A stretch of DNA of 64,000 nucleotides, from the NCBI GenBank assembly GCA_903910705.1, contig CAIWAN010000053.1, forward strand, positions 20,917 to 84,916, read 5' to 3'. The notes beneath the pieces were generated by a model, which saw only the letters and a list, made by a program, of their open reading frames with translations, had not been told where the DNA came from and ran no database searches. This document shows positions 34,452-36,671 of the stretch, piece after piece; position 1 is the stretch's first letter; each line of letters begins with the position of its first letter. The DNA comes from an uncultured Candidatus Marinamargulisbacteria bacterium. GTDB lineage: Bacteria; Margulisbacteria; Riflemargulisbacteria; GWF2-35-9. Position numbers and translations under genes: made by a program.

Positions 34452-34670
34452 TCAATTAACATAACAAAGGTCTTGGGCTTCAAGGTTGACATGAGTTTCA
34501 AATAGGTAATTGGTTACGAAGTCCTTTACTTTGCGTCTGAGGGTAGCAACCAAAGGAGGGATGAGCTTGTCTGAGGTTGTTTCTCTAAGTGCCTCGTCTG
34601 CGGGAAACCAGCGAATCTCTGGGTCTAATATTGCGTGAGGTGATTTGGGAAAGTCCTTATGTAATGCCAT
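34452..34670 (-). CDS. Small hypothetical protein (72 aa) embedded in the defence-like gene array.
   Basis: ORF with 3-nt and 19-nt spacing to the flanking genes; no known motif. Confidence 0.3.
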   Translation of the reverse strand: MALHKDFPKSPHAILDPEIRWFPADEALRETTSDKLIPPLVATLRRKVKDFVTNYLFETHVNLEAQDLCYVN

Positions 34671-34673
34671 ATA

Positions 34674-35270
34674 TCATTTCACCTTCTTTGTCCCTATTAT
34701 TTTATTGTATTCAATGGTTTCCTGATTGACTTTATTAATAATTAACATCTTTTCAGGTGTTGAGTTGTCATTAGCTTGTTTTGGCGTGCTAGGGGCTTTA
34801 TTAATGCCGTAAATAAAAATTAAAGCATAACGACAAGAATACCCACCCAGAAAATTGTTCTCACTCCAAAATGCTTCGGCAATATGTTTGCAGTATTCGT
34901 ACAGGCACGTTGCTCCCTTTAGTTGATCTACTACTTCAGAACCCTCAACTCTTTTTCTGTTCTTCCTAATAGCTTTAATCTCAATAAATAGTGCCTGTTT
35001 TTTGCTTTCAGAAATAATCAGATAGTCAGAGCGGCGCCGCATTCCATTTGTGTCATTGAAAAAGTAGTTATGATCGGGTTGATAGTTATGGGAAGGGAAC
35101 TTGTCGGTCTTGATAATAACAGCATCCTCAGGAAGCCCTTTGATGATGACAAAGCTGTTGTCTTGATTGGGCTCTGTTAAACGAGCCGCATTGGTTCCGT
35201 CGCACCAAGTGGTTAAAGTTTCAATATATGCTTCGTTCAATATTTCCCTTAACAAATCAGAGTCAGTCAT
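34674..35270 (-). CDS. Putative PD-(D/E)xK-fold nuclease-like protein (198 aa).
   Basis: Candidate motif 'RRSDYLII...(14 aa)...LFIEIKA', giving a D...E-x-K arrangement. It abuts the ATPase gene at 35270/35271. Confidence 0.4.
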   Translation of the reverse strand: MTDSDLLREILNEAYIETLTTWCDGTNAARLTEPNQDNSFVIIKGLPEDAVIIKTDKFPSHNYQPDHNYFFNDTNGMRRRSDYLIISESKKQALFIEIKAIRKNRKRVEGSEVVDQLKGATCLYEYCKHIAEAFWSENNFLGGYSCRYALIFIYGINKAPSTPKQANDNSTPEKMLIINKVNQETIEYNKIIGTKKVK

Positions 35271-36671
35271 TTAGCTTCCCCAAATAATTGAATCTTGAAT
35301 TCTGTTCATTTCCACAATGGTCGTATCAAATGTCTCTACTTCTATCCCGTAGTTTTTATCAATATCTGCTTGTTTTAATGTATGTACAGAGGTCTTTTTC
35401 TTATTTCCAGCAACGAGAACTAAGGCTTCCTTTGCAATGTAGACTTTTATCTTTGTGGGGTCTATCAGTTCTTGAACGATATATCCTTCTTCTTGTGCAA
35501 TTTTTTTCACTCTATCGTCAGGATAATGGAGCATTATCAGCGTGTTCAGCTCTTTAATAAAGTAGTCGCTATGGGTTGTTATAAATACCTTGATTCCGAT
35601 ATTAATTAATCTTGCAAAAAGTCTGGCTATTAAACGCTGATTCTTAGGATGTAAATTTAATTCGGGCTCATCAATCATTAAAATATCGCCCTTTTGCGCT
35701 TTATATCTTAAGTAGAATCCAATATCCACCATTGCTCGAACCGAACTTGAGCTTTCAACAAGGGATAGTCTTAGAGTTCTATTTGAGTGCGGAACAAAAA
35801 ATATCCCCCCTTTAACAACCCTTAATTCGCCTCCAATAATGTGATTAAAATTCTCTAGGATTTCTGGGTACTCTTTTTGAATAAAACTTTCTTGATTAAG
35901 GAACTCAGGAATAGATCGTATGAAGTTGATATTCTGCCTCACTGGGATAGGATAGTTCGACTCATATTTTCGTAGGAAAAACTTTTGATTGACATCTGGT
36001 TCTCGCTTCTCAATTTGTAAAAGCAAGTCGAGAAGATTTGATTTGTTAAAGTCAAGTTCCCTTTGAAAAATGGCTGCACCTGTTCGTTCAACACTTGCAA
36101 TAAACGGCTTGGGAATGGCCCCGTTGATAAATATTGTTTTTAAGACATCGCTAATTTCTTCTTTAATAATCCTTTCTGGAAATTTAGTGAGATTTTCCTC
36201 TTGAAGCGTGAGTGTAATACTTAAAATTGATTCGTTTTCAAGTTTCGAGAATTGAATAACAAAGGCTTCTTCTTTACCAAATTTTACTTTTTTATCGACG
36301 ATATCTTTGTTGCTTTTAAATTCCAGATCATCAAGCATTAAACTGGCATCTAAAAATAACTTCTCTTGAGCCCCCAATACTCGATGAATCGCTGGAATAT
36401 ATTTTTTGAGACCGGCTTGCACCTGTCCTAAAACCGTTTTCTCGTATTCGAGAAGGTCTATTTGCGCTGTGCCTCTTTCAACCAGCTCTTTTAATTTGCT
36501 TTCTGAGACAGCAAGTTCAAGCTCATTCTTTAAGTAGTCAAAGCAGCCATATATTGTGTATGTTGTATAGGTTTTAGCCGTATTATTTAATCCACAAATA
36601 ATCGTCATATCTCCTAGCTCCATTTCGGCTTGACGCAACATGCCCAGATTCTTAACCTTTATTTTCATCAT
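35271..36671 (-). CDS. ABC-type ATPase of the AAA_21/AAA_15 (SMC/RecF-like) family, partner of the downstream nuclease-like gene.
   Basis: Degenerate Walker A 'ICGLNNTAKTYTT', Walker B/D-loop 'LMIDEPELNLHP' and H-motif 'ITTHSDYF'. 466 aa. Confidence 0.7.
   Translation of the reverse strand: MMKIKVKNLGMLRQAEMELGDMTIICGLNNTAKTYTTYTIYGCFDYLKNELELAVSESKLKELVERGTAQIDLLEYEKTVLGQVQAGLKKYIPAIHRVLGAQEKLFLDASLMLDDLEFKSNKDIVDKKVKFGKEEAFVIQFSKLENESILSITLTLQEENLTKFPERIIKEEISDVLKTIFINGAIPKPFIASVERTGAAIFQRELDFNKSNLLDLLLQIEKREPDVNQKFFLRKYESNYPIPVRQNINFIRSIPEFLNQESFIQKEYPEILENFNHIIGGELRVVKGGIFFVPHSNRTLRLSLVESSSSVRAMVDIGFYLRYKAQKGDILMIDEPELNLHPKNQRLIARLFARLINIGIKVFITTHSDYFIKELNTLIMLHYPDDRVKKIAQEEGYIVQELIDPTKIKVYIAKEALVLVAGNKKKTSVHTLKQADIDKNYGIEVETFDTTIVEMNRIQDSIIWGS

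Follow-up and report, generated by a model that had tools for sequence, protein, structure and literature searches.

A probable PDC-M47 ATPase-nuclease pair nested in the remnants of a type III-like restriction-modification operon

Operons that combine an OLD-ABC ATPase with a novel restriction endonuclease (REase) are described in the passages of PMC12137116 that cite Krishnan et al. 2020, and pairs of this kind are also present in BREX (PMC12839542). PD-T4-4 of Escherichia coli (Vassallo et al. 2022) is the product of a functional selection (PMC9519451), and WonAB, a system of the Vibrio cholerae WASA-1 prophage, has been characterized by mutagenesis and shows an abortive-infection phenotype (PMC12137116). 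The target of WonAB is probably RNA, as translation is arrested and no damage to the chromosome is seen. Another group, PDC-M47, which is number 47 of the multi-gene entries in PADLOC-DB v2, is one of the phage-defence candidates (PDCs) obtained through guilt-by-embedding (bioRxiv 10.1101/2024.01.29.577857); our literature search found no paper that names it. Here we describe a gene pair that probably belongs to PDC-M47, a candidate two-gene anti-phage module that is sister to PD-T4-4 and, according to PMC12137116, related to WonAB and to the operons mentioned first.

The pair is located in a 64-kb stretch of DNA, hereafter the window (Table 1). A preliminary description had reported a 466-aa ORF that abuts a 198-aa ORF, and a 72-aa ORF 3 nt beyond. 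This layout was recovered at the same coordinates, with all three ORFs in one direction on the minus strand and no spacer between the first two, and so were all the motifs mentioned there, that is, GLNNTAKT, the Walker B/D-loop, TTHS, SDYLII (containing D82) and FIEIK (containing E97 and K99). An assembly error is excluded, since the same DNA is 100% identical in two other assemblies. Every further copy of the pair that the collections contain is 100% identical too, and the next relatives fall below 50% identity. A promoter and terminator scan between 29.5 and 39.3 kb gave signals no denser than those of shuffled sequence, and therefore nothing can be deduced from it about transcription units.

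Table 1. Position of the gene pair, its motifs and the surrounding features in the window.
Feature	Position	Strand	Basis or remark
ATPase ORF, 466 aa; ABC-type (OLD-like), PDC-M47A / PD-T4-4_A family	35271..36671	-	ORF list and profile matches
Small nuclease partner, 198 aa; predicted divergent PD-(D/E)xK (restriction endonuclease) fold, PDC-M47B family	34674..35270	-	profiles and model
72-aa ORF, remnant (first 51 codons) of a Res / DEAD-box helicase gene, type III-like	34452..34670	-	homology
440-aa ORF, what is left of the corresponding type III-like Mod methyltransferase after an internal in-frame deletion	36682..38004	-	homology
Strain-specific 8.2-kb block: Mod remnant, ATPase, nuclease, Res stub, SNF2 helicase, 594-aa protein	29872..38080		absent in L085
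Walker A GLNNTAKT (ATPase residues 27-34)	36570..36593	-	Ala32 (gct, 36576-36578) in place of the Gly of the family
Walker B and D-loop ILMIDEPELNLHP (ATPase residues 330-342); also given as LMIDEPELNLHP (residues 331-342)	35646..35684	-	column conservation
H-loop TTHS (ATPase residues 365-368)	35568..35579	-	H367 and S368 invariant in 138 homologues
Predicted catalytic core of the nuclease, D82 ... E97-x-K99	34974..35027	-	conserved columns and model
Met77 of the nuclease, where 89/96 family members carry Glu	35040..35042	-	column counts

The larger protein had been described as an AAA_15/AAA_21 ATPase of the OLD/PtuA type. Pfam matches to both AAA_15 and AAA_21 agreed with this assignment, and PADLOC returned full-length matches to PDC-M47A (E = 4.1e-166; residues 2-465 align with positions 1-459 of a 461-position profile) and to PD-T4-4_A (E = 1.9e-144 for PDLC04033, covering 457 of the 460 profile positions, and E = 1.4e-69 for PDLC04032). 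The protein contains all the nucleotide-binding motifs, together with two inserts and a conserved C-terminal extension at residues ~380-466, and its best identity to any relative found is 48%. In an alignment of 138 ATPase homologues, residues G27, K33, D334, P336, E337, L340 and H367 were invariant and E335 was present in 134 sequences. Given such conservation among homologues, the motifs of the ATPase and of its partner are not chance occurrences. The Walker A motif had been called degenerate, and this proved correct: the family consensus is G-x-N-N-T-G-K-T, and position 32 was occupied by glycine in 135 of the 138 representatives and by alanine in a single one, the window protein. Ala32 was likewise found in this protein alone when compared with 75 homologues from genome loci, which makes the G32A change unique among about 210 homologues.

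The 198-aa partner gave no match in Pfam, NCBIfam or PHROGs, and neither did the 72-aa ORF. A single-sequence word-index search recovered only four relatives, and the family emerged only once the search was carried out with an alignment. PADLOC matched the partner to PDC-M47B (E = 2.4e-41; residues 1-193 align with positions 1-184 of a 186-position profile) and to four more M47B models, and found nothing at E <= 0.1 among the PD-T4-4_B models. The earlier statement that this protein is not of an obvious HNH, TOPRIM or DUF4276 type held (in PADLOC only PDC-M47B models match). One correction to the preliminary description is that the family is already catalogued in PADLOC, as the candidate PDC-M47. 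The best identity of the partner to any relative found is 38%, and it carries a 6-residue insertion at residues 61-66.

Across the 96 partner homologues aligned, E97 was present in all of them, D82 in 95 and K99 in 90. The structural model is alpha/beta and places D82 directly before the strand 83-87, and E97 and K99 inside the next strand (92-101), the arrangement of a PD-(D/E)xK core. A Foldseek comparison of this model with the PDB gave no significant match; the best E value was 0.018 and the top matches were REase-fold domains. The partner-family profile found nothing at E <= 1 among PDB sequences. In the model the partner has a divergent PD-(D/E)xK (restriction endonuclease) fold, as the preliminary description had suspected. 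One functional position deviates: the family motif G-E-C-K-R-A-D-Y reads G-M-R-R-R-S-D-Y in the window nuclease, so that the glutamate at position 77, which is also absent from 7 of the 96 family members, is replaced by methionine (E77M). The occurrence of E77 in the 80 genome loci described below does not lend independent support to the conservation of this residue, because the scan pattern included that motif. Owing to the unique G32A change in the Walker A of the ATPase and to E77M in the nuclease, the present activity of this copy is in doubt.

With regard to family membership, both the A and the B profiles of PDC-M47 match, and gene A comes first, with gene B next to it on the same strand. 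All 96 partner homologues match PDC-M47B, and 62 of them also match PD-T4-4_B (best E = 3.9e-9). Since the window partner has no match of its own to PD-T4-4_B and 62 of its homologues do, the pair is best placed in a sister family rather than in PD-T4-4 itself. A bona fide PD-T4-4 pair is found in Vibrio phage 1.202.O (E = 6.4e-185 for A and 6.5e-18 for B), and the partner of that pair aligned with the M47B profile with an hhalign probability of 93.9%. These comparisons provide evidence, on the level of the families, that the PD-T4-4_B and M47B partners are homologous and have a divergent restriction-endonuclease fold in common. The window pair is one divergent addition to a catalogued candidate family with two validated sisters, PD-T4-4 and WonAB.

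Almost without exception the two genes lie side by side in one order, and they touch or overlap. Of 80 related loci, 78 have an ATPase homologue directly upstream of the partner, and the intergenic gap is -1 or -4 nt in 51 loci. As anticipated for a two-gene anti-phage cassette, the pair recurs in defence contexts of other genomes, within BREX and restriction-modification operons. In 15 of the 80 loci it is located between brxC and pglX (order BrxB-BrxC-[pair]-PglX). In locus L043 an intact Mod gene is followed by the pair, two small ORFs and an intact Res gene, and remnants of Mod and Res surround the pair in the window and in a Nostoc locus (L015). These arrangements provide a clear case of embedding, with the same type of pair inserted between brxC and pglX and, elsewhere, between type III-like Mod and Res genes. 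In about 60 of the 80 loci the neighbours are housekeeping or unrelated genes, which implies that the pair is able to stand alone. The window pair is closest to BREX-embedded pairs, and those of L043 and L074 rank about 70th of 78 by similarity to it. This distribution indicates that the cassette swaps host systems and does not co-evolve with one of them. Co-inheritance of the pair with its restriction-modification host was accordingly rejected, the L043 and L074 pairs being among the most distant relatives.

The genes on both sides of the pair are decayed. The first 51 residues of the 72-aa ORF share 76% identity with the first 51 of an 895-aa 'DEAD/DEAH box helicase family protein', which on an Aminobacter plasmid follows a methyltransferase, and 50% identity with the L043 Res (889 aa); the tail of the ORF matches weakly Res residues ~680-701 in two homologues. 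No other Res-like sequence was found within the window. The three ORFs initially grouped together are thus a pair plus the stub of a deleted gene, and the 72-aa ORF was discarded as a third component of the system. On the other side of the pair, the 440-aa ORF aligns in two parts with the 705-aa Aminobacter Mod: ORF residues 2-57 correspond to Mod residues 3-64, and ORF residues 37-440 to Mod residues 300-701, the latter with 68% identity. The in-frame deletion between them, of ~255 residues, removed the catalytic motif IV (DPPF, at residue 128 in the intact Mod) and retained FxGxG. Consistently, PADLOC MTase_III matches the remnant over profile positions 290-528 only. What is left of the type III-like system is a Mod without motif IV and a Res reduced to its first 51 residues and a weak 20-residue match. 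It must be noted that G32A, E77M and the decayed neighbours would fit an inactive copy of the pair too, which goes against reading it as a working system.

The pair and these remnants are part of an 8.2-kb block missing from a close relative (L085), whose DNA is 85-93% identical on both sides of the block. There, window position 38081 is joined straight to 29871, leaving a 12-nt spacer between a 290-aa gene and a radical SAM gene. The GC content of the block is 0.37-0.42, compared to 0.45-0.50 in the flanks. Its absence from L085 and its low GC content show that the block was recently acquired. No direct or inverted repeats border it, no integrase was seen among the scanned genes, and the tRNA genes of the window are found at 6.4 kb only. 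The locus is a dated natural case in which a host restriction-modification system has been newly gutted and the embedded pair, which carries unusual residues at two functional positions, has remained intact.

If WonAB and other OLD-type ABC systems are a guide, the ATPase would dimerise and sense an infection cue, while the nuclease would be held on the ATPase's C-terminal extensions. ATP binding and hydrolysis would license the nuclease to cut nucleic acid, and infection would be aborted at the expense of the cell. An abortive-infection-like behaviour is thus plausible by comparison with WonAB (PMC12137116); the nuclease target, the trigger and the stoichiometry of the complex are those that we infer from relatives. 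The cassette probably came in with the low-GC block of 8.2 kb, where it was embedded between the Mod and Res genes of a type III-like system; afterwards the catalytic region of Mod and nearly all of Res were lost, leaving the 72-aa ORF as a Res stub.

Alternatively, the pair could be a recently orphaned, non-functional passenger of a decaying defence islet, whose frames are open for lack of time. The large deletions in the two genes of the one-time restriction-modification operon that border the pair, the singular G32A and the loss of an acidic residue at position 77 speak for this possibility, and so does the partner, which departs from the family at 3 of 22 conserved columns, a value as high in only 9 of the 96 members (the top ~10%). 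We nevertheless consider it unlikely. Both genes are full length and keep every other catalytic residue, Shine-Dalgarno-like sequences precede both start codons, and the ATPase is no outlier (2 departures at 49 conserved columns, against a median of 1). Position 77 tolerates other residues in a few family members, and the deletions end just outside the pair on either side. Moreover, the Mod remnant retains 88.3% of the invariant columns compared to 88.0% in the control; given this lack of accelerated decay, the damage to Mod must be recent and has little bearing on the pair.

A second alternative, modelled on PrrC and EcoprrI, is that the pair is kept latent by the proteins of its restriction-modification or BREX host and fires when a phage inhibits them. 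The loss of Mod and Res could then have left the module deregulated or useless, and G32A and E77M could be attenuating changes selected to tame it. The nesting of the pair in BREX and between Mod and Res genes, the PrrC precedent, the idea of a 'backup layer' (bioRxiv 10.1101/2024.01.29.577857, PMC12839542) and the intact, well conserved C-terminal region of the Mod remnant are in line with such a dependence. This explanation seems distinctly improbable, however, in view of the many loci with housekeeping or unrelated neighbours, of the similarity of the window pair to BREX-embedded pairs rather than to those of L043 and L074, and of the fact that PD-T4-4 and WonAB are functional when transferred on their own to different hosts (PMC9519451, PMC12137116). 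We regard as very unlikely the complete scenario in which the pair was once gated by Mod/Res, as PrrC is by EcoprrI, and after their deletion the ungated and potentially self-toxic module was tamed by G32A plus E77M; if true, the locus would be a natural record of how an embedded ABC-nuclease system was coupled to the system that hosted it. Finally, a toxin-antitoxin-like addiction module that stabilises the mobile block rather than defending against phage, the nuclease being the toxin and the ATPase the antidote, would agree with the presence of a small nuclease beside a larger regulator on a mobile block specific to the strain, with the Pfam name of AAA_21 (type IV toxin-antitoxin system) and with the toxicity of over-produced WonB (PMC12137116), but it is extremely improbable, because the tested relatives protect against phage (PMC9519451, PMC12137116) and WonAB is toxic only if the ATPase is present and active, so that mere sequestration is ruled out (PMC12137116).

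Compared with known systems, the probable PDC-M47 pair differs from PrrC/RloC, PARIS (AriAB), Gabija (GajA), Septu (PtuAB) and P2 Old in that its effector is a separate protein with a predicted REase fold. This effector is not a TOPRIM, HNH or anticodon-nuclease domain, and the pair shows neither the TOPRIM or HNH effector nor the AbiLii partner of Gabija, PARIS, Septu and AbiL. The similarity of the window ATPase to those of PrrC, PARIS, Gabija, Septu and P2 Old lies mostly between Walker B and the H-loop. With PDC-M47 the pair shares full-length matches of both proteins, the abutting A-then-B order on one strand and a family nested in BREX, whereas the window copy resides in a decayed type III-like operon and carries G32A, E77M and the insertion at residues 61-66 of the partner. 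With PD-T4-4 it shares the two-gene architecture, the PD-T4-4_A match and homologous partner families; PD-T4-4, in contrast, came from an ICE-like element, and the Vibrio phage copy occupies a P2-type hotspot between repressor and integrase, rather than a restriction-modification operon. As for WonAB, the partner is larger (about 23 kDa compared to 16.1 kDa for WonB), and WonAB-type systems vary in the inserts of their ATPase and in its C-terminal extension (PMC12137116). As is typical of this type of operon, the small partner combines a variant PD-(D/E)xK fold with a cluster of conserved acidic and lysine residues. Paired by motif and position rather than by alignment, WonA K34, R182, E300 and H333 correspond to K33, R196, E335 and H367 of the window ATPase, all of them invariant or near-invariant, and WonB K71 would be the counterpart in role of K99 in the window nuclease.

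The pair lies on the minus strand of the window. The three open reading frames, coordinates and all, were as first described, and the motifs quoted for the ATPase were recovered: a Walker A, GLNNTAKT (residues 27-34), read directly from the sequence, LMIDEPELNLHP (331-342) and TTHS (365-368). Pfam assigned the protein to AAA_15 (1.9e-20) and AAA_21 (2.5e-14), and PADLOC returned full-length matches to PDC-M47A, from a candidate phage defence family (4.1e-166), and to PD-T4-4_A (1.9e-144); matches to AriA, Old, GajA, PtuA and others were partial and far weaker. An exhaustive HMMER search with the ATPase yielded 868 cluster representatives at E <= 1e-30. 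Residues G27, K33, D334, P336, E337, L340, H367 and S368 were invariant in 138 full-length homologues, H341 and E335 were shared by 137 and 134 of them, and R196 was invariant in an alignment of 93 sequences. No solved structure of any member of the ATPase family was found.

The 198-aa partner had no match in Pfam, NCBIfam or PHROGs, while PADLOC identified it as PDC-M47B (2.4e-41). A profile search gave 98 relatives, of which 96 sequences were aligned. E97, Q116, L117 and G119 were invariant in this alignment, and D56, D82, K99, K118, C122, Y126 and C127 nearly so. The motifs SDYLII (D82) and FIEIK (E97, K99) are present and, given this conservation, the D...E-x-K motif proposed in the preliminary description is the conserved core of the partner family. 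In a confident structure model (pLDDT 90.5), D82 directly precedes strand 83-87, and strand 92-101 holds both E97 and K99.

Features of the window around the ATPase-nuclease pair
Feature	Position	Strand	Remarks
AAA_14/DUF4143 ATPase	27437-28627	plus	PADLOC PDC-S01 2e-61; just outside block
B12-binding radical SAM protein	28527-29879	minus	weak PDC-M51A match 2.5e-14; adjoins PDC-S01-type ATPase
8.2-kb block	29872-38080		absent from L085 (close relative genome, 85-93% DNA identity on both sides)
594-aa protein	29879-31663	minus	end to end after SNF2 helicase, inside 8.2-kb block
SNF2 helicase	31664-34432	minus	922 aa; PADLOC DpdE 2e-121, ZorD 8e-101, C-terminal part
Small ORF	34452-34670	minus	72 aa; 3 nt beyond 198-aa ORF
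Partner ORF	34674-35270	minus	198 aa; first base directly after ATPase stop
ATPase ORF	35271-36671	minus	466 aa
297-aa protein	38065-38958	minus	HExxH-like motif HESFH; 85% DNA identity in L085

The genes on either side of the pair are remnants of a type III-like restriction-modification system. The 440-aa ORF upstream matches residues 3-64 and 300-701 of a 705-aa methyltransferase (Mod) with 68% identity; an in-frame deletion has removed motif IV (DPPF, residue 128 of intact Mod) and kept FxGxG. Among columns invariant in three intact Mods, 88.3% are conserved in the remnant, equal to the 88.0% of a leave-one-out control, which makes the damage look recent. Downstream, residues 1-51 of the 72-aa ORF share 76% identity with the N-terminal 51 residues of a DEAD/DEAH helicase of 895 aa encoded after a methyltransferase gene on an Aminobacter plasmid. 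To judge from this, the ORF is a pseudogene stub of the restriction helicase (Res), no other Res sequence being found within the window. Its tail, KVKDFVTNYLFETHVNLEAQD (window 34452-34530), weakly matches Res residues ~680-701, at the same place in two homologues. Since 'KVK.F' occurs in intact Res at both ends of the missing part (residues ~47 and ~683), we tentatively suggest a deletion between short repeats.

We then turned to other genomes. Scanned at one genome per species, they gave 245 partner relatives from many phyla; 80 of these were retained. An ATPase homologue lay directly upstream of the partner in 78 of the 80 loci, with a gap of -1 or -4 nt in 51. The gene order was BrxB-BrxC-pair-PglX in 15 of the 80, and most others had unrelated neighbours. 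Locus L043 has the pair flanked by intact Mod (718 aa) and Res (889 aa) genes, both belonging to the type III-like family seen in the window. In a Nostoc locus (L015), a 60-aa Res stub comes right after the partner, its start overlapping the partner stop, an arrangement resembling that of the window, where 3 nt separate them. The window pair is nearest to BREX-embedded pairs (ATPase identity 46-48%) and those of L043 and L074 rank only about 70th of 78, which argues that the cassette has entered such operons more than once. Two ~137-aa ORFs, with a few-base overlap, follow the pair in L043 (10593-11416), where Mod and Res enclose them as well, and in L074 (10596-11425); one of them weakly matches PDC-S09 (2e-05), and the two possibly form a small toxin-antitoxin-like pair.

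L074 (7078-20522) is more complex: a 469-aa gene and Mod lie downstream of the pair and the two small ORFs, and four more ORFs (531, 413, 143 and 137 aa) between Mod and Res are a second embedded cargo in the same type of operon. Among BREX operons carrying the pair (L004, L005, L007, L008, L010, L012, L023, L029, L030, L035, L055, L056 and L058), BrxC proteins are 65-97% mutually identical, in hosts that include Nitrosomonas, KSB1, Burkholderiales, Desulfobulbus, Methylobacter and Halothiobacillus, so that a single BREX lineage with the pair as cargo appears to have spread horizontally.

The 8.2-kb block is a recent acquisition. In L085 (12483-12511), a 12-nt spacer separates the stop of the 290/297-aa gene from the start of the B12-binding radical SAM gene, and exactly here the window carries the block, which comprises the Mod remnant, ATPase, nuclease, Res stub, SNF2 helicase and 594-aa protein. 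Its GC content is 0.37-0.42, against 0.45-0.50 around it; housekeeping genes lie on either side of the wider region. The block showed no flanking repeats, nor was any integrase or tRNA found there. The SNF2 helicase fell under the cut-off of every NCBIfam model and the 594-aa protein had no match in Pfam, NCBIfam or PADLOC; together they could form a separate, uncharacterised defence pair. The PDC-S01-type ATPase and radical SAM genes are both conserved in L085 and therefore predate the block. A PDC-S01-type gene also lies directly upstream of Mod in L043. The 297-aa protein had no family match. A second variable spot (window 39045-41895) lies beside glyQ; it holds an 841-aa ORF with no family match (39201-41726), and at this place L085 has a 167-aa ORF on the opposite strand.

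A functional window copy is consistent with two full-length reading frames, ribosome-binding sites in the sequence and an ATPase that is no outlier at conserved columns. All other catalytic residues are intact. Against function, residue 32 of the ATPase is Ala (codon gct) where the family consensus is G-x-N-N-T-G-K-T, a G32A substitution unique among the 138 homologues and also among 75 genome-locus homologues. Also against it, the partner carries the rare E77M (Glu in 89 of 96 family members) and falls within the most divergent tenth of its family. The partner further differs from the family by a 6-residue insertion at residues 61-66. Close variants of the pair, sought for a selection test, were not found.

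Finally, we compared the pair with known systems. PDC-M47B was matched by all 96 partner homologues and PD-T4-4_B models by 62 of them as well (best 3.9e-9), whereas the window's own partner had no PADLOC match to PD-T4-4_B at E 0.1. A bona fide PD-T4-4 pair (A 6.4e-185, B 6.5e-18) is located between the repressor and integrase genes of a P2-like Vibrio phage, and the partner of this pair aligned to the M47B profile with 93.9% probability. This shared homology argues that PDC-M47 and PD-T4-4 are sister families, with the window pair placed by its sequence in PDC-M47 rather than PD-T4-4. The earlier reading of the two genes as an ATPase-nuclease cassette of anti-phage type is supported. PDC-M47 was not found by name in the literature; the PDC models, 145 in all, stand for untested candidates picked for being embedded in systems of the BREX, DISARM or type I restriction-modification kind (bioRxiv 10.1101/2024.01.29.577857), and BREX-internal OLD-ABC and REase pairs have also been described (PMC12839542). 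PD-T4-4 was discovered in E. coli through functional selection (PMC9519451). WonAB of V. cholerae has been described as a relative of PD-T4-4 and of the 'OLD-ABC ATPase + novel REase' operons. It causes abortive infection that does not depend on lysis, in which translation is arrested and the chromosome stays intact; its nuclease toxicity depends on the ATPase, and defence is lost in ATPase-motif mutants and in the nuclease K71A mutant (PMC12137116). Only the history of embedding and the unusual G32A and E77M substitutions go beyond routine; the pair itself is a divergent new addition to a known, catalogued kind.
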